A DNA stretch of 64,000 bases from an uncultured Acidimicrobiaceae bacterium (GTDB lineage Bacteria > Actinomycetota > Acidimicrobiia > Acidimicrobiales > Aldehydirespiratoraceae). The stretch is taken from NCBI GenBank assembly GCA_913041415.1, contig CAJWHS010000001.1, positions 3,844 to 67,843 on the forward strand, written 5' to 3'. The notes under the pieces were generated by a model. It was given only the letters and a program-made list of their open reading frames with translations. It searched no databases and had not been told where the DNA came from. The position numbers were made by a program, and so were the translations under genes. Below, piece after piece: positions 8,407 to 64,000 of this stretch (its first letter is position 1; every line of letters starts with the position of its first letter).

Positions 8407-9336
8407 GTGACCGATCACACCGTCTCACCCATCGACGCCGTCGATCGTGTCGCCCTCGATCAGCCCCGACGCTTCGAAGCCAGCGACTTCGACCTCACGC
8501 GTCTGTGCGAACTCAAGGGCGCCACCACCGTTTCGGTGTGCGTGCCTGCTCGCGACGAGGCCGAGACCGTGGGGCCGATCGTGCAGACGATCTCGACCCT
8601 TCAGCACCGTGGTCTCGTCGACGAGATCGTGGTGATGGACGATCGCAGCACGGACGCAACAGCCGAGGTCGCCGCCGCCGCCGGAGCACGAGTGGTCTCG
8701 GTCCCCGACGTGCTCCCCGAGGCCGGCACCGCCACCGGCAAGGGCAATGTGTTGTGGGCCAGCGTCGCTGCCAGCGCGGGCGATGTGATCGTCTGGATCG
8801 ACGCCGACCTGCGCAGCTTCACACCCGACTACGTGATCGGCTTGCTCGGCCCACTGCTCACCGACCCCGAGGTCACCCTCGTCAAGGGCTCCTTCGACCG
8901 CCCCACGGCCGGTGGCGCCGGCGGCGGGCGCACGACCGAACTGATGGCTCGCCCCGTGCTCGCCACCTTTTTCCCCGAACTCGGCGTGATCGAGCAGCCG
9001 CTGGGCGGCGAGTACGCGAGTCGCCGCTCGATCCTCGAACAACTCCCCTTCCCGCAGGGCTACGGCGTCGAGACCGGACTCTTGATCGACATCGCTCACC
9101 GCTGGGGTGTCGGTCGCATCGCCCAGGTTGACCTCGGCGTTCGCGAGCACCGCCATCAGTCATTGAGCGCGCTGTCCTCGCAGGCGATGGAAGTTCTCCA
9201 CGCCGCCCTCCTTCGAACCGGGGCCGACAGGGCCACGCTCAGCCGAGTGCTGATGCGCCCCGACGCGGCGCCGGTCGAGGTGCGGGTCGACGAACGGCCC
9301 CCGCTGATCGAGATACCGGGCTATCGCGACCGCTGA
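8407..9336 (+). CDS. gpgS: Glucosyl-3-phosphoglycerate synthase-like GT-A glycosyltransferase
   Basis: VSVCVPARDEAETVG, VVMDDRSTDATA, GKGNVLW and WIDADL (DxD) match the GT81 GpgS layout from memory. Confidence 0.7.
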   Translation: MTDHTVSPIDAVDRVALDQPRRFEASDFDLTRLCELKGATTVSVCVPARDEAETVGPIVQTISTLQHRGLVDEIVVMDDRSTDATAEVAAAAGARVVSVPDVLPEAGTATGKGNVLWASVAASAGDVIVWIDADLRSFTPDYVIGLLGPLLTDPEVTLVKGSFDRPTAGGAGGGRTTELMARPVLATFFPELGVIEQPLGGEYASRRSILEQLPFPQGYGVETGLLIDIAHRWGVGRIAQVDLGVREHRHQSLSALSSQAMEVLHAALLRTGADRATLSRVLMRPDAAPVEVRVDERPPLIEIPGYRDR

Positions 9337-9376
9337 CCGTCGAGTGGCCAGCGGGCGGGACCTACACTCGCCTCTC

Positions 9377-10609
9377 ATGTTCGAGACCCTGCGCTCCACG
9401 GTTCGGTTCCGCCGCTTCCGGTTCGGTCGCGCGACTCGACAACTCGATCGAGCAGCGAACGTCACGGACCTGCGGGCGATAGCGAAGCGTCGCCTGCCGG
9501 GTGGGGTGTTCGACTACATCGACGGCGCGGCCGAGGACGAGCGCAGCCTCGCTCGTTCGATGACCGCGTTCGCCGACATCGAGTTCAAGCCCCGGGTGCT
9601 GCGCGACGTCTCCGAGATCGACCCGACCACCACGCTGCTCGGTGAGCCGATGGCCTTCCCGTTCATCGCCGCCCCCACCGGCTTCACCCGCATCGCTCAC
9701 AGCGAGGGTGAACTCGCCGTCGCTCGAGCCGCCGGGCGCGCCGGCATTCCCTTCACCCTCTCGACCCTCTCGACCCGCTCGACCGAAGAGATCGCGGCGG
9801 TGAACCCAGGCCGCAACTGGTTCCAGGTCTATGTCTGGAAGGACCGCGGACTCGTCGAGGAGATGGTGCGGCGGGCAGGAGCCGCCGGCTTCGACACGAT
9901 CGTGCCGACCGTCGACCTCGCCACATTCGGGCGCCGCGAGCGCGACGTACGGCGCGGGTTCGAGTTGCCACCAAAAATCGGGCTCGACACGATCATCGAC
10001 GGGATCCGCCACCCGGGCTGGACCTGGGACTTCCTGACGGGTGGTCCCATTCGCTTCGCCAACGTCGCCGCCTCCGACGGCTCCGGCAAACGCGACGGCA
10101 CCGACGCGATCAACCTCGCCGCCTATGCCAACGAGCAGCTCGACCCATCACTCAGTTGGGACGACATCGAATGGTTCCGATCGATCTGGAACGGCCCGAT
10201 CGTGGTCAAGGGCGTGCAGTCCGTCGCCGACGCCCGCATCGCCGCCGATCTCGGCATCGAAGCGATCGCCATCTCGAACCACGGTGGCCGCCAACTCGAG
10301 GGTTCCCCACCGCCGATCGAACTCATCGCCCCCGTTCGCGATGCGATCGGTGACGCCTGCGAACTCATCTGCGACGGCGGCATCCGACGGGGCGCCGACA
10401 TCGTGAAGGCACTTGCACTCGGCGCCGACGCCACCATGGGCGGACGGGCGCACTTCTTCGGCCTTGGAGCCGCAGGCGAACGAGGTGTCGAACTCGCCTT
10501 CGGATTCCTGAGCGACGAGTTCCGTCGCGCGATGGCGCTCAACGGGCTGCGCTCGGTGAGCGAGATCACCCCAGACGTGGTGTCGCCACCCCGAAATCGG
10601 ACAGACTGA
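9377..10609 (+). CDS. FMN-dependent alpha-hydroxy-acid oxidase/dehydrogenase (LldD/glycolate oxidase family)
   Basis: Motifs ISNHGGRQLEG and DGGIRRGADIVKALALGA. Start taken at the second Met (MFETLRS). Confidence 0.85.
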   Translation: MFETLRSTVRFRRFRFGRATRQLDRAANVTDLRAIAKRRLPGGVFDYIDGAAEDERSLARSMTAFADIEFKPRVLRDVSEIDPTTTLLGEPMAFPFIAAPTGFTRIAHSEGELAVARAAGRAGIPFTLSTLSTRSTEEIAAVNPGRNWFQVYVWKDRGLVEEMVRRAGAAGFDTIVPTVDLATFGRRERDVRRGFELPPKIGLDTIIDGIRHPGWTWDFLTGGPIRFANVAASDGSGKRDGTDAINLAAYANEQLDPSLSWDDIEWFRSIWNGPIVVKGVQSVADARIAADLGIEAIAISNHGGRQLEGSPPPIELIAPVRDAIGDACELICDGGIRRGADIVKALALGADATMGGRAHFFGLGAAGERGVELAFGFLSDEFRRAMALNGLRSVSEITPDVVSPPRNRTD

Positions 10610-10614
10610 CCCCG

Positions 10615-12075
10615 ATGCCGCTGTTCCGCTCGACGCGCGAACCAACCGATCCGCTCGTCGCTGACCTCACCGCAGTGCTTGATGCCGATCGAGTCCGTGC
10701 CGACGGCGCTCAGCGGTCACTTGCAGCGCACGACGCCTCCGTGTTCGACGGCGGCATCGCCGGCCCGGTGTGCTTCCCGGAGACCACCGAAGAGGTCCAG
10801 GCGATCATGCGCATCGCCGAACAGCACGGTTCGGCCGTGGTCCCCCGTGGCGCAGGCACCGGCCTCGCCGGTGGCGCAATCCCGCTGGGGCGGCCCGTCG
10901 TCGTGTCGACCGGCCGGATGAACAAGGTGCTGTCGGTCGATACCAACAACCGCATCGCCTGGGTGCAACCCGGCGTCATCAATCTCGACCTCTCGAAGAA
11001 GCTGCGACCCAAGGGGTTCCACTTCGCCCCCGATCCGTCAAGCCAACAGGTCTGCACGCTCGGCGGCAATGTCGCCAACAATTCCGGAGGCCCCCACTGC
11101 CTCGCCTACGGCGTCACCGATGCCCACGTCGTGTCGCTGGAAGTCGTACTGCCCGACGGGCAGGTCGCCGTGCTCGGCGGCGCCGAGGACGAGACCCCCG
11201 GCCTTGACCTTCGCGGCGCGTTCGTTGGCAGCGAGGGCACGCTCGGCATCGCCACCAAGATCGGGGTCCGCATCACACCCAACGCCCCGGCCGTGCGCAC
11301 CCTGCTGCTGTCGTTCGCAACGGTCCGCGACGCCGCTCAGACCGTCAGCGACATCATCGCCGCCGGCGTCGTACCCGCCGCGCTCGAGGTGATGGATCAA
11401 CGCATGACCGTTGCGGTCGAGAACTATGTCGCCGCCGGTTACCCCACCGATGCCGCCGCCGTGCTGCTCGCCGAGGTCGAAGGACTCGAAGGTGGGGTCG
11501 AGATCGATGCCGCCCGCATCGAGGAACTTGGGCGGGCCAATTCCGCCACCGACGTACGTCTCGCCGGCTCCGAGGAGGAGCGAGCTGCGCTCTGGAAGGG
11601 CCGCAAGACCGCATTCGGTGCCGTCGCCCAGATCGCACCCGACTACTACCTGCACGACACCGTCGTTCCCCGGGCCCAGCTTGCCGACATCCTCGAGCAG
11701 ATCTACGAGATCACCGACCGCCATGAGGTCACGGTGATGAATGTCTTTCACGCAGGCGACGGGAACCTGCATCCACTCCTCGTCTTCGACGCCCGCGAGG
11801 AAGGCACCCTCGAACGGGTCCACGCCGCCGGTGCCGAGATCCTTCGAGCCTCGCTTGCGGCGGGCGGCGTGCTGTCCGGCGAACACGGCATCGGAGTCGA
11901 GAAGCAGGCCTATATGGACGAACTCTTCTCCCCGGCCGACCTCGACCACCAGAACCGTCTTCGCCAGGCCTTCGACCCCGCCTGTCGGGCGAACCCCGGC
12001 AAGGTCTTGCCGATAGGTCACAGTTGCGCCGACATCCAGGCACTCCGCGAAATGCCCACCGGGGTGTGGGGATGA
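10615..12075 (+). CDS. glcD: FAD-linked oxidase, glycolate oxidase subunit GlcD-like
   Basis: PCMH FAD-binding motif VVPRGAGTGLAGGA. Typical length of 486 aa, followed by glcE- and glcF-like genes. Confidence 0.85.
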   Translation: MPLFRSTREPTDPLVADLTAVLDADRVRADGAQRSLAAHDASVFDGGIAGPVCFPETTEEVQAIMRIAEQHGSAVVPRGAGTGLAGGAIPLGRPVVVSTGRMNKVLSVDTNNRIAWVQPGVINLDLSKKLRPKGFHFAPDPSSQQVCTLGGNVANNSGGPHCLAYGVTDAHVVSLEVVLPDGQVAVLGGAEDETPGLDLRGAFVGSEGTLGIATKIGVRITPNAPAVRTLLLSFATVRDAAQTVSDIIAAGVVPAALEVMDQRMTVAVENYVAAGYPTDAAAVLLAEVEGLEGGVEIDAARIEELGRANSATDVRLAGSEEERAALWKGRKTAFGAVAQIAPDYYLHDTVVPRAQLADILEQIYEITDRHEVTVMNVFHAGDGNLHPLLVFDAREEGTLERVHAAGAEILRASLAAGGVLSGEHGIGVEKQAYMDELFSPADLDHQNRLRQAFDPACRANPGKVLPIGHSCADIQALREMPTGVWG

Positions 12076-12995
12076 GCACGCTCACCTCCGCCGACCGGGC
12101 TCTGCACGAGTTCGGGGCGCTGGTCGGCGCCGACGACCCCATCGCCGTGGAGGGCAACCGCACTCGTTGGCATCTCGGCGGCCCACTTGACGAGTCCGCC
12201 CGACTCGTCAAGGCCCCCACTGGCATCGTCGACTACCAGCCCTCAGAGATGGTGGTCACCGTCCGCGCCGGCACGACCGTCGCCGAACTCCACGAAACGC
12301 TCGCCGCTGCCGGCCAGACCTCGGCACTGCCCGACCGGGGCGGCACCGTCGGCGGGGCAGTCGCTGTCGGAGAGAACCGGCTCGACCGACTCGGCCGCGG
12401 GTCGGTACGCGACGCGGTTTTGCAGGTCCGGTACGTGTCGGCCGAAGGCGAGATCGTCACCGGCGGTGGCCCGGTCGTGAAGAACGTCAGCGGCTTCAAC
12501 CTCCCCAAGCTCATCGTCGGCTCGCTCGGCACGCTCGGGCTCATCGGCGAGGTCGTGTTGCGCACCAACCCGATTCCGCCCGTCCAACGCTGGATCCGGG
12601 TCGAGCGGGTCGACCCTCGCGACATCCGGGATGCACTTCTGCGACCTGGAGCCATGCTGTGGGACGGCACCAGCAGCTGGGCGCTCGTTGAGGGTCACGA
12701 AGTGGATGTCGTCGCTGAGGTCGACAAGCTTGCGACGCTCGTCGACATCGCCAATGTCGACGGCCCGCCCGAGTTGCCGCCGCACCGTTGGCTTCTCTCC
12801 CCCCAGGGGGCAGCGCACGTCGACACGATGACCGACGGGGCATTCATCGCGAGCATCGGCGTCGGAACGGTCTGGGCCGAAGAACCACCCGAACCCACCG
12901 AGCCCGACCCCGTTGCCGGCCAGATCGCCGAACGGACGAAGCGACTGTTCGACCCCTCCGGGCGACTGAACCCCGGCCGCCGGGCAGGAGCCTGA
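12072..12995 (+). CDS. glcE: Glycolate oxidase FAD-binding subunit GlcE-like
   Basis: ATGA start/stop overlap with glcD at 12072-12075. FAD-binding domain protein of about 307 aa. Confidence 0.75.
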   Translation: MSTLTSADRALHEFGALVGADDPIAVEGNRTRWHLGGPLDESARLVKAPTGIVDYQPSEMVVTVRAGTTVAELHETLAAAGQTSALPDRGGTVGGAVAVGENRLDRLGRGSVRDAVLQVRYVSAEGEIVTGGGPVVKNVSGFNLPKLIVGSLGTLGLIGEVVLRTNPIPPVQRWIRVERVDPRDIRDALLRPGAMLWDGTSSWALVEGHEVDVVAEVDKLATLVDIANVDGPPELPPHRWLLSPQGAAHVDTMTDGAFIASIGVGTVWAEEPPEPTEPDPVAGQIAERTKRLFDPSGRLNPGRRAGA

Positions 12996-58622: not shown

Positions 58623-59213
58623 ATGCGTCACCCCGTCGCCTCGTTCCTGGCCGAATGCAGCCACCTCCTCGGAGCTGTCGATGAGGCGATGGCCCAGCGC
58701 TTTGCCTCGCTGCTTGCCGTCGCGGCGGATACCGAAGGTGATCCCTCGGAACTCGCGTCGCCGTTCCCGCTGGGACCACATCCCGACATGGGCGCCATCA
58801 CCACAGCACGGACCGCTGCTGCGCTCGCCGGTCTGGTCGCCGCCGATCCTCATATCGGGTGGCGCCATCCGCCCGAGGAGCACGTGCCGCCGGGATGGGC
58901 ACATTCGGCGGCTGCCGCCGAGCTGTTGGGGCCCGATGGCTCGATCACGGGGCCGGACCCGGAGCGATTTGGGCTCTTCTTCCTCAATCCCGGGGTCACC
59001 TATCCCGACCACTGGCACGACGCCGACGAGTTCTATTACGTGCTCGCCGGTTCCGCGGTGTGGACCGTCGGCGATGAGACCACCCGTTCCCCGGCGGGCT
59101 CGTACATCCGAACCCCGTCGCAGGCGGTTCACCGCATCATCACCGACGACGAGCCCGTGCCCACGGTGTGGGGCTGGTCGGGCGACACCAGCTTCGATTC
59201 CTACGGCTACTGA
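58623..59213 (+). CDS. Cupin-domain protein (DMSP-lyase-like family)
   Basis: Cupin motif YPDHWHDADEFYYVLAG...H. An alternative GTG start lies at 58569. The N-terminal 230 codons of the track ORF are antisense to the ABC ATPase gene. Confidence 0.5.
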   Translation: MRHPVASFLAECSHLLGAVDEAMAQRFASLLAVAADTEGDPSELASPFPLGPHPDMGAITTARTAAALAGLVAADPHIGWRHPPEEHVPPGWAHSAAAAELLGPDGSITGPDPERFGLFFLNPGVTYPDHWHDADEFYYVLAGSAVWTVGDETTRSPAGSYIRTPSQAVHRIITDDEPVPTVWGWSGDTSFDSYGY

Positions 59214-60103
59214 TCGACCTCGTCGGGAAGCAACGACCAGAACGCATCCACGAGCGGGTTGTGCAGGTGACGCTTCAGGGTGAACAACCCGAGTTCGTAG
59301 GGCTCCAGCACAGGGTCGACCTCGAGCACGCGAACACGTTCGGCATGAGGGCTGTTGTCGAGCACGATCTTCGGCACCACACCGAGGCCGAGCCCGAGAC
59401 TGACCATGCTGACGATCGCCTCGTTACCGGCCACCTGGGCGTAGATCTTCGGCGTGACGTCGAGCCGGCGAAACCAGGCATCGATTCGGCGACGGGCGAT
59501 ACCGCCGGCCGCAAGAATCATCGGGACCTCCGCCCAGGCCTCGCGATCATCCGGCGGCAGGCGCGACGGCATCGGGTCGGCGGTCTCGACCGGCTCGATG
59601 AAGACGAGCGGTGAAACCCGGATCGGCTTGAACCGCACACCAGCGGGCAAGTTGGCGGGCCGGGCCGCGATCGCAAGATCTTCCTCCAACGCCTGCACCC
59701 GCGCGATCGCATATTCGGGATCGCCGGTCTGGAGCCGGATCTCGACTCCCGGATGGGCGGGACGGAAGCGGTTCAACAGATCGAACAAGATGCTGTGGCT
59801 GGCCGTGACCGAGCAGTAGAGGCTGATCTCGCCCCGCAGTTGGTCAGCAGAGTCGGTGAGCTCGAAGCGGATCTGGTCCCACTGCTGCACGGCATCACGG
59901 GCGTAACGCTGAAACCGGTAGCCGGCCGGCGTCAGCTCAACGGTTCGGTTGTCACGATTGAACAACGCCACGTTGAGTTCGGCTTCAAGCTGTCGGATGT
60001 GGCGTGATAACGCCGACGTGCTGATGTTCGCCCGGGCGCTCGCCCGCCCGAAGTGCAGCGTCTCGCTCAGCTCGACGAAGTGGCGCAACACCGTGATGTT
60101 CAC
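59207..60103 (-). CDS. ilvY: LysR-family activator IlvY
   Basis: Colinear by eye with my recollection of E. coli IlvY (HFGRA..., [40 protein letters not shown]). It is divergent from ilvC. GTG start at 60103. Confidence 0.85.
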
Positions 60104-60210
60104 ACATCCATCGTTGCAGGTATCGGGACACAGCGTTGCACATATGTCCATTTACGAAACATGCACCGATCGGTAGCATTCGTGCGTTCGATCTCTCGTG
60201 GAGACCTGCC
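60104..60210. promoter_or_regulatory. ilvY-ilvC divergent control region
   Basis: 107-bp segment, visibly less GC-rich than its surroundings. It contains the 10-bp perfect palindrome ACCGATCGGT (60165-60174) inside ATGC-N10-AGCAT, and the repeated CGTTGCA at 60108 and 60130. Confidence 0.5.
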
Positions 60211-61683
60211 ATGGCCAACTACTTCAACACCCTTCCGCTTCGAGCACAACTCGCCGAACTCGGCAAGTGCCGCTTCATGCACCTCGACGAGTTCTCCGAC
60301 GGCGTGGAGGCACTCCGCGGCAAGAAGATGGTCGTGATCGGTTGTGGCGCCCAGGGCCTCAACCAGGGTCTCAACCTCCGCGACAGCGGCCTCGACGTGT
60401 CGTACGCCCTTCGCGACGAGGCCATCGCCCAACAACGCCAGTCGTGGAAGAACGCCACCGAGAACGGCTTCACCGTCGGCACCTACGAGGAACTGCTGAC
60501 CACCGCCGACGTGGTGCTCAACCTCACCCCGGACAAGCAGCACACCAACGTCGTCGAGACGATCATGCCGATGATGAAGCACGGTGCCTGCCTCTCGTAC
60601 TCGCACGGCTTCAACATCGTCGAGGAAGGCATGCAGATCCGTGACGACATCACCGTCATCATGGTTGCGCCCAAGTGCCCCGGCTCCGAAGTCCGGGCCG
60701 AATACGTCCGTGGCTTCGGCGTGCCGACCCTGATCGCCGTTCACGAGGACAACGACCCCAACGGAGAAGGCCTCGCCCTCGCCAAGGCCTACGCCGTCGG
60801 CACCGGCGGTCACAAGGCCGGCGTGTTGATGTCGTCGTTCATCGCCGAGGTCAAGTCCGACCTCATGGGCGAGCAGACCATCCTCTGCGGGATGCTGCAG
60901 ACCGGCTCGTTGCTGTGCTTCGACAAGATGGTCGACGAGGGCATCGACCCGGCCTACGCCTCGAAGCTCATCCAGTACGGCTGGGAGACCACCACCGAGG
61001 CACTCAAGTACGGCGGGGTCACCAACATGATGGACCGCCTGTCGAACCCGGCGAAGATCCGCGCCTTCGAGCTCTCCGAGGAGCTCAAGGACATCCTGCG
61101 GGACCTCTACAACAAGCACCAGGACGACATCATGACCGGCGCCTTCTCGTCCGGCATGATGGCCGACTGGGTCGACGACGACGCCAAGCTGCTCGGCTGG
61201 CGCGCCGATACCGCCGAGACCGCCTTCGAGAAGACGGCGGCCGGCGACATGGAGATCGCCGAACAGGAATACTTCGACAACGGCATCCTCGTGGTCGCCA
61301 TGGTGAAGGCCGGTGTCGAACTCGCCTTCGAGACGATGACCGCCGCCGGCATCATCGCCGAGTCGGCCTACTACGAGTCGCTGCACGAGACCCCGCTGAT
61401 CGCCAACACGATCGCTCGCAAGAAGCTCTACGAGATGAACGCCACGATCTCCGACACGGCCGAGTACGGGTGCTACCTGTACACCCACGCATGCGTTCCG
61501 TTGCTCGCCGACTTCATGACCAGCATCACGAGCGACGTGATCGGCAAGGGCCTCGACGTGACCGACAACGGCGTCGACAACGCCCGCTTGATCGAGGTCA
61601 ACGAAGCCATCCGAAGCCACCCGGTCGAGGCGATCGGCTCCGTGCTCCGGGGCCACATGGCCAACATGAAGCGCATCGTCTGA
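60211..61683 (+). CDS. ilvC: Ketol-acid reductoisomerase, class II (long, enterobacterial type)
   Basis: 490 aa, colinear from MANYFNTL... to ...MKRI with my recollection of E. coli IlvC. Motifs include [21 protein letters not shown] and [15 protein letters not shown]. Confidence 0.95.
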
Positions 61684-61693
61684 TCGTTCTCGC

Positions 61694-63118
61694 ATGATCC
61701 GTCTGGACGCGCTGTCGGTCGACTTCGACGAGCGCTTTCAGCTCCTCGACATCGACTGGACAATCCGTCCGGGCGAGCACTGGCTGATTACGGGCGCCAA
61801 CGGCTCCGGCAAGTCGGCGCTCGCCGCGGTGCTGGCCGGCGACGGAGACGTCCTGTCGGGGAGCATCGAGGGAGTTCCCGAGCGGGTCGCGCTCGTGTCC
61901 TATGAGCGGCAGGCCGAGCTGATCGCCGCCGAACGCCGAAAAGACGACGCCGACATCCTCGACGTGATCTCCGAAGGCACACCGGTCGCCGAGATCATCG
62001 AGGGCGGCTGCGAGGACCTCGATCTGGCTCGGAGCCTGATCGATACGCTGGGCCTACGGCCCCTGATGAGCCGGGCGTTCCGCAAGCTCTCGACCGGCGA
62101 GACCCGCAAGGTCATGTTGATCCGAGCGCTCACGAGCCGGCCTGATCTGCTCGTCCTCGACGAGCCGTTCGACGGCCTCGACCACGACTCACTCGTCTGG
62201 CTCCAGGGCCATCTGCGCAAGCTGGCCGAGACGACACCGATGGTGATCGTGCTCAACCGCTTCGACGAGTGCCCCGACTTCGTCACCCATGTCGCCTTCG
62301 TCGACGACGGCCGACTTCCGCTCTGTGTCGAGCGAGCCGACGAGCAGGCCTACGCCGAGCTTTACCAATTCCTCCATCTCAAGACGAGCGATCTCGAGAT
62401 CCCAGCGGCCGACCCCGCGGCGCAACTGCCGGCGCTCGATCCCGACGCGCCGCTCGTGCAACTCACCGGCGCCACCGTCCGCTACACCGACAACACGGTG
62501 TTCGAGGGCCTCGACTGGACGATCGAGCCGAACCAGAGCTGGCAACTGAGCGGCCCCAACGGCAGCGGCAAGACCTGCCTGCTGCAGCTGATCACCGGCG
62601 ATCACCCGCAGTGCTATGTCAACGGCATCAACGTCTTCGGCTACCAGCGTGGCACCGGCGAGAGCATCTGGGAGATCAAGCAGTTCATTGGGTACGTCTC
62701 CACCGCCCTCCAGTGGGAGTACACGGTGAGCACCGGCCTCCGGAACGTCATCATCTCCGGCTTCCACGACAGCATCGGGCTCTACACGAAAAGCACCGAC
62801 ACCGAGAAGGCCATCGCCGACGAGTGGCTCGCCCTGCTCGGCATGTCCGACCGAGCCGACGAGCCGTTCAACCGGCTCTCGTTCGGCGACCAACGCCTCG
62901 TGTTGATCGCTCGCGCCATGGTGAAGCACCCACCACTCCTGATCCTCGACGAGCCGTGCCTCGGCCTCGATGACATGAATCGGCAGCTGGTGCTCGCCCT
63001 CGTCGAGCGGATCTGTCTCGGCAGCGAGACGAGCGTGCTCTATGTCAACCATCGCGAGCAGGATCGCGTCACCGGGATCGACAACCACCTGACCTTGCGT
63101 GACAACATCGTCGCGTGA
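61694..63118 (+). CDS. Twin-ATPase ABC protein, ModF-like
   Basis: Two Walker A sites (GANGSGKSAL and GPNGSGKTCL), LSTGETRK, ITGDHPQ and LSFGDQRL. There is no permease partner. Confidence 0.8.
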   Translation: MIRLDALSVDFDERFQLLDIDWTIRPGEHWLITGANGSGKSALAAVLAGDGDVLSGSIEGVPERVALVSYERQAELIAAERRKDDADILDVISEGTPVAEIIEGGCEDLDLARSLIDTLGLRPLMSRAFRKLSTGETRKVMLIRALTSRPDLLVLDEPFDGLDHDSLVWLQGHLRKLAETTPMVIVLNRFDECPDFVTHVAFVDDGRLPLCVERADEQAYAELYQFLHLKTSDLEIPAADPAAQLPALDPDAPLVQLTGATVRYTDNTVFEGLDWTIEPNQSWQLSGPNGSGKTCLLQLITGDHPQCYVNGINVFGYQRGTGESIWEIKQFIGYVSTALQWEYTVSTGLRNVIISGFHDSIGLYTKSTDTEKAIADEWLALLGMSDRADEPFNRLSFGDQRLVLIARAMVKHPPLLILDEPCLGLDDMNRQLVLALVERICLGSETSVLYVNHREQDRVTGIDNHLTLRDNIVA

Positions 63119-63170
63119 CCGCGTTGGTGGGTCGAGCTGCCCGGCGGTACCGGGCGCCACGGAGGCTGGA

Positions 63171-63671
63171 TCAGGTGCCGAGCGACGGGAGGGCCACGCG
63201 GCCGGTGCGCTGCATGTCGATGATGCCGAAGGGACGCAGCCGCGCCTCGAACTCATCGAGACGTGCCGGGCGAGCCGACCACGACATCAGGACCTTGCCG
63301 TCGCCCTCGTTGAGGACGTAGGCGCAGTAGTAGTCGACGATCTCCATCAGTTCCTTGCGCTGCTCCCCCACCTCGACGATGACAAGCATGAGTTCACGCT
63401 CGACCGACGCATCGGGATCAAGCTGGGAGATGTCGACGACATTGATCAGCTTGTCGAGCTGCTTCACCACCTGATCGAGCGGCGTGCCTTCGATGTCGAC
63501 GGTGAAAGTGATGCGACTGAACTTCTCGTTCTCGGTGGGCGCGACGGCCAACGAGTGGATGTTGAAGCCACGACGGGAGAACAACCCGGCGACGCGAGCG
63601 AGCACACCCGGCTTGTTTTCGACGGTGACGGCGATCGTGTGCCAGCGCGGGCTACTGGGCGAGGCGTTCAT
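63171..63671 (-). CDS. ilvN: Acetolactate synthase small (regulatory) subunit
   Basis: ACT domain HTIAVTVENKPGVLARVAGLFSRRGFNI. It has an ATGA overlap with ilvB. Confidence 0.9.
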   Translation of the reverse strand: MNASPSSPRWHTIAVTVENKPGVLARVAGLFSRRGFNIHSLAVAPTENEKFSRITFTVDIEGTPLDQVVKQLDKLINVVDISQLDPDASVERELMLVIVEVGEQRKELMEIVDYYCAYVLNEGDGKVLMSWSARPARLDEFEARLRPFGIIDMQRTGRVALPSLGT

Positions 63672-64000
63672 GACGCTGCTCCCTTCCCGGCGTTGCCGTC
63701 GGAGGCGTCCCCGTCGATCAGGTGCTGCTGGCTCGGGTCGACGACCAGCTCGGAGTTGGTCTTGCCGGCCGGGACCATCGGGAACACGTTCTCCCGGGCG
63801 TCGGTGACGAACTCGACGACGACCGAACGGTCGTCGATCTCGTTGGCCTTGGCGATCGCCGGGGCGACCTCCTCCGGCGACTCGACCCGGATGCCGACAG
63901 CGCCCATCGCCTCGGCCCACTTCACATAGTCCGGGACGTTGTCGCTGAGGTGCACCTCGGAGAAGCGCTCGTCGTAGAACATCTCCTGCCACTGGCGAAC
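63668..64000 (-). CDS. ilvB: Acetolactate synthase large subunit, C-terminal part (partial at window edge)
   Basis: The ThDP-enzyme C-terminus (...EVAPAIAKANEIDDRSVVVEFV...) runs off the window end. Confidence 0.85.
   Translation of the reverse strand, partial: VRQWQEMFYDERFSEVHLSDNVPDYVKWAEAMGAVGIRVESPEEVAPAIAKANEIDDRSVVVEFVTDARENVFPMVPAGKTNSELVVDPSQQHLIDGDASDGNAGKGAAS

Follow-up and report, generated by a model that had tools for sequence, protein, structure and literature searches.

The window analyzed here is a stretch of 64,000 nucleotides of contig CAJWHS010000001.1 from an uncultured Acidimicrobiaceae bacterium. Positions 59207–63118 hold a block of three genes: ilvY on the minus strand, followed on the plus strand by a class II ilvC and a gene for a ModF-like twin ATPase. 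The block adjoins the 3′ end of a native, actinobacterial-type ilvB–ilvN pair. An earlier reading of the DNA alone (hereafter the sequence-only reading) had named ilvY, a 490-aa class II ilvC, a ModF-like gene, ilvN and the 3′ end of ilvB, and had proposed that the block is a foreign replacement of the resident ilvC, either old or from a GC-rich donor. Open reading frame (ORF) calls and profile searches recovered every one of these genes, the block coordinates matched the ORF list, and all three block proteins exceeded the respective NCBIfam equivalog cut-offs.

The central gene, ilvC (60211–61683, plus strand), encodes a 490-aa protein that scored 910.8 bits against the class II ketol-acid reductoisomerase (KARI) equivalog NF003557 (PRK05225; cut-off 713), covering model positions 1–488 of 491. 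Residues 1–489 aligned to residues 1–487 of E. coli K-12 IlvC with two gaps and 71% identity, in agreement with the end-to-end colinearity that the sequence-only reading had suggested. Pfam detected KARI_N and two KARI_C stretches, and a class I KARI query in tblastn matched two successive regions of the gene. The architecture is that of class II enzymes, in which a single chain of about 490 aa joins an N-terminal Rossmann domain to a knotted C-terminal domain present in duplicate. The closest solved structure was the class II KARI of E. coli (1YRL/3ULK; E = 5.4e-239). By homology, the window IlvC is a class II KARI, predicted to convert acetolactate to 2,3-dihydroxyisovalerate with NAD(P)H and Mg2+.

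The divergent gene, ilvY (59207–60103, minus strand), encodes a LysR-type activator of ilvC of 298 aa when read from GTG 60103. Its product scored 372.5 bits against the IlvY equivalog NF008722 (cut-off 246), with the second-best family at 122.5 bits, so that LysR architecture (Pfam HTH_1 and LysR_substrate) is combined with a score above an IlvY-specific cut-off. Its alignment with E. coli IlvY is colinear over 298 aa, with 44% identity. The GTG start is supported by homology both to the E. coli protein and to the IlvY model; automatic calls in sister assemblies instead place the start at ATG 60151, giving 314 aa and a 59-bp gap to ilvC.

The third gene (61694–63118, plus strand; 474 aa) encodes two ABC_tran domains in one chain, lacking a membrane domain, and is 42% identical to E. 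coli ModF over 449 aa. Its score against the ModF equivalog NF008186 was a marginal pass (476.3 bits, cut-off 459), and the modE/modABC linkage seen in E. coli was not found: in the window and in the donor clade identified below, modF follows ilvC. We use the name ModF-like because of this marginal score and differing context. The gene starts 10 nt past the ilvC stop and is probably co-transcribed with ilvC, judging from this spacing. In many marine Gammaproteobacteria (among L004–L030 and L036; for example L008, L011, L012, L025–L028 and L030), a ModF-like twin ATPase gene likewise lies directly after class II ilvC, with or without ilvY. This conserved linkage hints at a role tied to ilvC rather than to molybdate, and it offers a small lead on the function of ModF-like ATPases.

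All three genes are under purifying selection. The ratio of nonsynonymous to synonymous substitution rates (dN/dS) was 0.04–0.15 for ilvC, 0.13–0.19 for ilvY against the other acidimicrobial copies and 0.07–0.21 for modF, thus 0.04–0.21 across the cassette, with synonymous sites near saturation.

On the right, modF and ilvN converge, and the 52 bp that separate their stops (63119–63170) form the cassette boundary; this spacer contains a GC hairpin, GCCCGG-CGGTA-CCGGGC, at 63139–63155. Beyond it lie ilvN (63171–63671, minus strand; 166 aa), which encodes the acetolactate synthase small subunit (NF008864, 165.7 bits, cut-off 119), and the 3′ end of ilvB (63668–64000, minus strand), which runs off the window. 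The window IlvN is 53–66% identical to other acidimicrobial IlvN proteins and 35–41% identical to gammaproteobacterial IlvN/IlvH. The full IlvB of the same species, taken from the metagenome-assembled genome (MAG) MOX_bin82 (L001, JAKMFW01), best matched the actinobacterial model PRK07789 (868.6 bits); IlvB is 70–74% identical to acidimicrobial IlvB and 43–46% identical to gammaproteobacterial IlvB. In L001 and in the sister strain L093, ilvN and ilvB are followed past the position of the window end by a divergent CTP_transf-like gene, a MatE gene and gatB–gatA–gatC. The two sister strains (95–96% nucleotide identity) also carry about 0.6–0.7 kb of extra DNA at the modF/ilvN junction (L001 12906–13475; L093 12909–13619), including a PemK/MazF-like toxin gene (L093 13285–13608) and a 64-aa ORF.

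On the left, the cassette boundary is set by a 7-bp overlap between the ilvY stop and that of a host cupin gene (58689–59213, plus strand; 174 aa; PF16867/PF07883; called at 8479–9003 in L093). The cupin protein matched Pfam DMSP_lyase (PF16867, E 4.7e-16) and Cupin_2, and the gene may encode a dimethylsulfoniopropionate (DMSP) lyase in a marine acidimicrobial genome. Other window genes fit an actinobacterial host as well, for example those for an Rv3169-family protein and OtsA.

All relatives compared in this work are MAGs or metagenome contigs, and the window itself comes from an uncultured lineage known mainly through metagenome assemblies, a setting in which gammaproteobacterial and acidimicrobial DNA might have been joined by assembly or binning. 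The probability of such a chimera is vanishingly small. L001 has the identical gene order at 95–96% nucleotide identity, and the order recurs in two polished contigs of 2.83–2.84 Mb (ENA ERZ28548061 arlington_4__contig_4698_pilon and ERZ28548074 grub_3__contig_1704_pilon) and in one of 1.06 Mb; with its junctions shared by an independent MAG and three long polished contigs, we exclude a chimeric assembly. The 7-bp overlap of ilvY with a host gene and the host-like composition throughout the block point the same way. GC content is equal in block and flanks, and the GC content at third codon positions (GC3) of the window block is 0.82–0.93; block GC and GC3 equaled the host values in every genome examined. 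The GC3-rich codon usage reported in the sequence-only reading was thus reproduced, and the comparison with the flanks showed no difference. Near-identical IlvC proteins (at least 97% identity) were retrieved from many ENA, JGI, NCBI and TARA assemblies, and where these were named they belonged to Acidimicrobiaceae, Acidimicrobiales or Actinomycetota.

To place the cassette phylogenetically, IlvC was scanned against one genome per GTDB species, and the 80 GTDB loci with the closest IlvC were compared. The acidimicrobial MAGs L001 and L003 (CAWUSE01) matched at 97% and 88%, respectively. The next matches, at 84–87%, were marine Gammaproteobacteria: Marinomonas, Halomonas, Amphritea, Motiliproteus, Hahellaceae, Halopseudomonas and Granulosicoccaceae. 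A tblastn search with the neighboring proteins showed that these bacteria carry the same divergent ilvY and ilvC–modF block, with IlvY 61–69% and ModF 60–70% identical to the window proteins; some gammaproteobacteria have ilvC–modF without ilvY. In neighbor-joining trees, the acidimicrobial IlvY and ModF proteins each formed one clade with 100% bootstrap support. In a concatenated IlvY, IlvC and ModF tree, the copies of the window, L001, L083 (GCA_039028435.1), L081, L003 and L002 (CALHVX01) formed a 100% clade that was sister to Granulosicoccaceae at 100%, and both values survived Dayhoff-6 recoding. In the IlvY, ModF and concatenated trees alike, the acidimicrobial copies nested inside gammaproteobacterial diversity. 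These trees support an origin of the cassette in marine Gammaproteobacteria, with Granulosicoccaceae as the nearest sampled relatives, followed by Oceanospirillales-type genera.

The foreign origin proposed in the sequence-only reading is therefore borne out by the trees and by the 84–87% IlvC identity to bacteria with the same block, and the transfer is old, one of the two options raised there, because the composition is fully ameliorated; the cassette is moreover common to diverged acidimicrobial lineages. The description of the block as enterobacterial in type needs correction, since modF beside ilvC is a marine gammaproteobacterial linkage and not the E. coli arrangement. Vertical inheritance, with class II ilvC and ilvY ancestral and the gammaproteobacterial likeness a matter of conservation, would account for a block composition indistinguishable from that of the host. 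It is nevertheless highly improbable: the IlvC identity of 84–87% to gammaproteobacteria stands beside 43–46% for the adjacent IlvB and 35–41% for IlvN, the cassette nests inside the gammaproteobacterial tree, and at the corresponding locus related Acidimicrobiales carry a class I ilvC without ilvY.

Several further arrangements were noted around this enzyme. In a Granulosicoccaceae locus (L012 6068–12988), ilvB–ilvN is followed by a 1.1-kb gap without a recognizable gene and then by class II ilvC–modF, which places class II ilvC downstream of ilvBN in a possible donor family too. A 342-aa ORF between ilvN and ilvC in L012 was considered as a class I ilvC marking an intermediate state and was rejected, having no family match; no ilvY remnant was found in that gap. 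A cassette-bearing contig labeled "Granulosicoccus" (L029 195–2588) carries a DUF87/HerA-like gene whose identity to the DUF87 gene flanking the acidimicrobial ilv locus is 55% in tblastn and reaches about 76% in local tblastx segments; the contig could be mis-binned, or this could be another shared gene. In Halieaceae, divergent ilvY and ilvC converge on ilvN–ilvB much as in the window but without modF. Class II IlvC proteins of 74–77% identity were also found in marine Verrucomicrobiaceae (with IlvY at 46%), Planctomycetota and many Flavobacteriia (L075, L078, L045–L080), the last with ilvC downstream of ilvN and no ilvY. Such matches indicate that the class II enzyme is widely spread across marine phyla.

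What the cassette displaced was determined from related acidimicrobial loci. A homolog search with the window IlvC was saturated by metagenome proteins of at least 97% identity and lacked phylogenetic spread, so the IlvN of the rarer lineage L003 was used as the probe for relatives; its named homologs were all Acidimicrobiales or Actinomycetota. Contigs with IlvN 83–90% identical to that of L003 (L081, L082 and L083) shared one gene order: a CTP_transf-like gene divergent from ilvB–ilvN, then ilvY on the opposite strand, ilvC (490–491 aa), modF and a Peripla_BP_6 gene in the direction of ilvBN, and finally a DUF87 gene on the opposite strand. Contigs with IlvN 66–79% identical to that of L003 (L085, GCA_054014755.1; L086; L087; L089, SRR34274700; L090; L091) had ilvB–ilvN followed directly by a class I KARI gene encoding 341–344 aa.

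One pair of loci preserves the states before and after the exchange. L089 and the cassette-bearing L083 share an upstream MalK-type ABC gene and a downstream DUF87 gene, and a 460-aa protein encoded downstream in L089 is 45–50% identical to the product of the Peripla_BP_6 gene that follows modF. The sole difference between them is a class I ilvC in L089 versus divergent ilvY, class II ilvC and modF in L083. The pair thus shows directly that a replacement took place in situ. In the window lineage, the cassette likewise occupies the slot directly downstream of native ilvB–ilvN, and since related Acidimicrobiales keep class I ilvC in that slot, with a native equivalent present at six acidimicrobial loci, the native gene was in all likelihood displaced. 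Foreign gene affinity between native flanks is what xenologous displacement in situ would leave behind, and the synteny downstream of ilvN together with the actinobacterial type of the window ilvBN upholds the in situ replacement advanced in the sequence-only reading.

The cassette might instead be a paralogous addition, with class I ilvC elsewhere in the genome and the cassette serving as an extra inducible isozyme beside ilvBN. This would be compatible with the extent of sequence seen, namely the 64-kb window and the flanking DNA of L001 and L093, yet we judge it improbable. The class I gene lies exactly at the cassette position in six related contigs, neither a class I gene nor a remnant occurs in the window or at the L001 locus, and a dN/dS of 0.04–0.15 denotes the very strong purifying selection expected of a sole KARI. 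On the displacement reading, class I ilvC has presumably been lost from the whole genome.

The cassette also brought its own regulatory DNA. Given a start at GTG 60103, ilvY and ilvC are separated by the divergent control region of 107 bp (60104–60210) described in the sequence-only reading. We aligned this region with the gammaproteobacterial and E. coli intergenic regions. An O1-like IlvY operator, CGTTGCAGGTATCGGGAC (60112–60129), lies in register with E. coli O1, given as ACgTTGCAAaaaTTGCAAtGT (PMC5002191), and fits the form TTGCA-N7-GGGAC common to all marine copies. An O2-like operator, CGTTGCACATATGTCCATTTACGAAAC (60134–60160), overlaps the ilvC −35 element and aligns with both E. coli GACGTTGTGAATATATCAATTTCCGCAAT and its donor-clade counterpart. 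In the E. coli intergenic region, O1 reads ACGTTGCAAAAATTGCAATGT, and the O2 region GACGTTGTGAATATATCAATTTCCGCAAT comes next. The E. coli operators were footprinted by Wek and Hatfield, and the E. coli system is that of Wek and Hatfield (1988) and Rhee et al. (1998), both as summarized in PMC5002191. A core of about 50 nt in the intergenic region can be aligned in register across E. coli, the donor clade and all acidimicrobial copies; in this core the window is 68–78% identical to the other copies (same-species L001 excluded), against 40–66% over the next 50 nt. Divergent transcription combined with tandem O1/O2-like sites in register with the E. coli operators further identifies this as an IlvY system. 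With the GTG start, the ilvY start codon lies only 8 nt from the O1-like site, compared with 10–50 nt more in other copies, which would leave the ilvY mRNA with little or no leader.

A putative ilvC promoter was read at 60151–60179 (plus strand), with −35 TTTACG (60151–60156) inside O2, a 17-nt spacer and −10 TAGCAT (60174–60179), followed by a Shine–Dalgarno sequence GGAGA at 60200–60204. The E. coli promoter has identical geometry (TTTCCG-17-TATAGT), and the −10 position reads TAGAAT in other acidimicrobial copies. A weak consensus match is usual for activator-dependent promoters. On this alignment, the O1/O2 operators and the −35/−10 geometry are conserved in register across E. coli, the donor clade and the window, which fits the earlier proposal that IlvY control was imported: the control elements came with the genes and have been maintained.

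Because the mechanism is established in E. coli, we infer a corresponding one here. Bound at tandem O1/O2, IlvY would repress its own promoter; with acetolactate or acetohydroxybutyrate, it would activate the ilvC promoter, whose −35 lies inside O2, and this activation would extend to modF, as the ilvC–modF gap is only 10 nt. By homology, IlvY would still bind and mediate induction of ilvC in this host. Expression of ilvC would thereby be uncoupled from ilvBN and made substrate-inducible: since ilvC is no longer co-oriented with ilvBN, it would track the substrate and not ilvBN transcription.

The block is not private to this genome, and its history probably includes more than one transfer. 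The window cassette is inverted relative to ilvBN, such that ilvBN and modF converge, whereas in the L003 clade ilvC is co-directional with ilvBN. A tree of the host proteins IlvB and IlvN placed L089, which has class I ilvC, with the cassette-bearing L003/L081/L083 clade at 100% bootstrap and left the window lineage outside; monophyly of the cassette-bearing hosts received 0% support. Both results were also obtained with Dayhoff-6 recoding. The class I IlvC of L089 is as diverged from other class I proteins as the IlvB of L089 is from its counterparts, and because these divergences match, class I ilvC was evidently inherited with ilvB in L089 rather than re-acquired.

Divergence of cassette and host was then compared. 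Between the window lineage and L083, identity was 0.886 for IlvC, 0.70 for IlvY and 0.77 for ModF, with 0.70 for host IlvB (window-lineage IlvB taken from same-species L001) and 0.57 for host IlvN. Between L083 and L081, the values were 0.888, 0.70 and 0.78 for the cassette proteins and 0.82 and 0.78 for host IlvB and IlvN, respectively. The two pairs are thus equally diverged in the cassette, but in the host proteins the window lineage and L083 are much further apart. On the simplest reading, to which we give slightly better than an even chance, the cassette reached the window lineage from the L003-clade copy, or gave rise to it, at about the time when that clade radiated, which would constitute a second transfer into the slot. 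A move of the cassette from one acidimicrobial lineage to another, with more than one landing in the ilvC slot, is therefore probable; repeated landing is suggested because the same cassette lineage adjoins ilvN, in opposite orientation, in an acidimicrobial clade that is not the closest by ilvBN. The grouping of the window cassette with L083 (93% bootstrap on raw sequences, 42% after Dayhoff-6 recoding) was not relied on, as GC composition may have produced it.

Alternatively, the cassette could have been acquired only once, by an ancestor of both cassette-bearing lineages, and then simply inverted in the window lineage; the class I ilvC of the intervening lineages would be accounted for by differential loss from an ancestor with both genes, or by an ilvBN tree that misrepresents the species relationships. 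The cassette copies are monophyletic, the cassette touches the ilvN 3′ end in both lineages, and a single inversion is enough to turn either arrangement into its counterpart; the host tree, moreover, is a neighbor-joining tree of only two linked genes, ilvB and ilvN. We nonetheless regard this history as the less likely one, given the 100% placement of L089 with L003/L081/L083 and the 0% support for cassette-host monophyly, recoding included, the absence of any sign that the class I IlvC of L089 was re-acquired, and the equal cassette but larger host divergence between the window and L083 than between L083 and L081.

The locus of L002, a genome labeled Pseudomonadales, may add a further episode. 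Its cassette (8984–12924) grouped with those of L003 and L081 at 99% bootstrap (87% after recoding), and its ilvC leader is short and of acidimicrobial type. The enoyl-CoA hydratase encoded beside modF is 86% identical to one in the gammaproteobacterial MAG L036, and its named homologs were all Pseudomonadales or Pseudomonadota. The combination suggests a return transfer from Acidimicrobiales to Gammaproteobacteria, although L002 could alternatively represent a donor lineage. The transfers can be joined, tentatively and at somewhat less than even odds, into one history in which a single cassette lineage repeatedly overwrites the ilvC slot, passing from a Granulosicoccaceae-like source to an acidimicrobial clade, from there in inverted form to the window lineage, and on to L002. 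The first step would be an exact replacement of class I ilvC between ilvN and the binding-protein gene in one acidimicrobial clade; the second, a move between acidimicrobial lineages into the same slot, inverted as in the window; and the third, a return to L002 at a site where relatives have ilvC–modF without ilvY. If true, this would amount to selection-driven, slot-specific replacement in which cells can afford to lose the resident ilvC only where a substitute comes in with the new DNA, and it would mean that a LysR activator and its operators work across a phylum boundary.

Taken together, we estimate a probability of about 80% that positions 59207–63118 represent a cassette of divergent ilvY and class II ilvC–modF, acquired horizontally from marine Gammaproteobacteria, which displaced the native ilvC, brought its own regulatory DNA and probably landed in this slot more than once. 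The following points weigh against it. The trees are neighbor-joining trees built on tblastn segments from MAG contigs, and the host tree has the two-gene basis described above; the number and direction of transfers are accordingly conjectural. The search for class I ilvC or a remnant, which turned up neither, covered the 64-kb window and the L001 locus of about 21 kb. A promoter scan with a threshold of 9/12 found nothing at the proposed ilvC promoter, which matches 8/12 consensus positions, and the regulatory part of the reading presumes that IlvY is compatible with actinobacterial RNA polymerase. Direct and inverted repeats around the cassette are at chance level, no tRNA genes were found there, and there is no integrase, transposase or remnant of donor DNA to mark the insertion. 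With no Rfam families in the whole window and no convincing terminators around the cassette either, a mobile-element signature of integration was rejected.

Comparison with known systems places the locus close to E. coli ilvY–ilvC. The two share divergent genes, full-length colinear proteins (IlvC 71%, IlvY 44%) and two tandem operator-like sites in matching register, the ilvC −35 being located within O2 and separated from the −10 by 17 nt. They differ in that the window host is an actinobacterium in which regulation is predicted from sequence, that the right half of O1 is TTGCAA in E. coli and the marine form GGGAC in the window, and that the window has a short leader, extending about 50 nt beyond O2. 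Furthermore, ilvC is followed by ppiC in E. coli, where modF lies after modE elsewhere on the chromosome. The marine gammaproteobacterial block (Granulosicoccaceae, Marinomonas, Halomonas, Motiliproteus, Hahellaceae, Halopseudomonas) has the same genes, order, orientation and operator core. It differs in its GC3 (0.4–0.8, against 0.82–0.93 in the window) and in its ilvC–modF gap (roughly 100–300 nt, against 10 nt), and the window has a shorter ilvC leader and actinobacterial genes on both sides. Relative to actinobacterial ilvBNC (L085–L087, L089–L091), the window lineage retains the ilvB–ilvN type and the upstream CTP_transf-like gene divergent from ilvB, but the co-oriented class I ilvC of 341–344 aa is missing from the slot, which holds the foreign cassette on the opposite strand instead.

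The M. tuberculosis KARI is a class I enzyme of 337 aa (PMC8985424). The same study described "MtKARI-II", a class II KARI from an M. tuberculosis variant assembly, and explained it by horizontal transfer from a gammaproteobacterium; its gene has 100% DNA identity to Morganella morganii (PMC8985424), possibly reflecting a very recent transfer or contamination. Both cases concern a class II KARI in an actinobacterium with a proposed gammaproteobacterial source. In contrast to MtKARI-II, the window case is ancient and ameliorated, recurs across many independent assemblies in a defined chromosomal setting. Full-text literature searches returned no prior description of a class II KARI or IlvY in Acidimicrobiia, and the M. 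tuberculosis variant report was the only actinobacterial class II item.

The locus reveals no new kind of system: it is an E. coli-type IlvY/IlvC system and a known kind of event, xenologous gene displacement, in a new phylum. As a replacement by horizontal transfer, it is clean and unusually well documented though not unprecedented: a before/after pair survives, the operators were transferred with the genes, and one slot was probably used repeatedly. A core biosynthetic gene appears to have been swapped for a non-orthologous isozyme of different structure, with its dedicated regulator and operators transferred alongside, from Pseudomonadota to Actinomycetota. The case bears on the portability of LysR activators between distant RNA polymerases and on recurrent replacement at a single slot. 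For the organism, the predicted consequence is a change in branched-chain amino acid control in an abundant marine acidimicrobial lineage: in the ancestral state, ilvC was co-oriented and probably co-transcribed with ilvBN, and in the new state a substrate-induced, IlvY-dependent ilvC would be expressed from the opposite strand.

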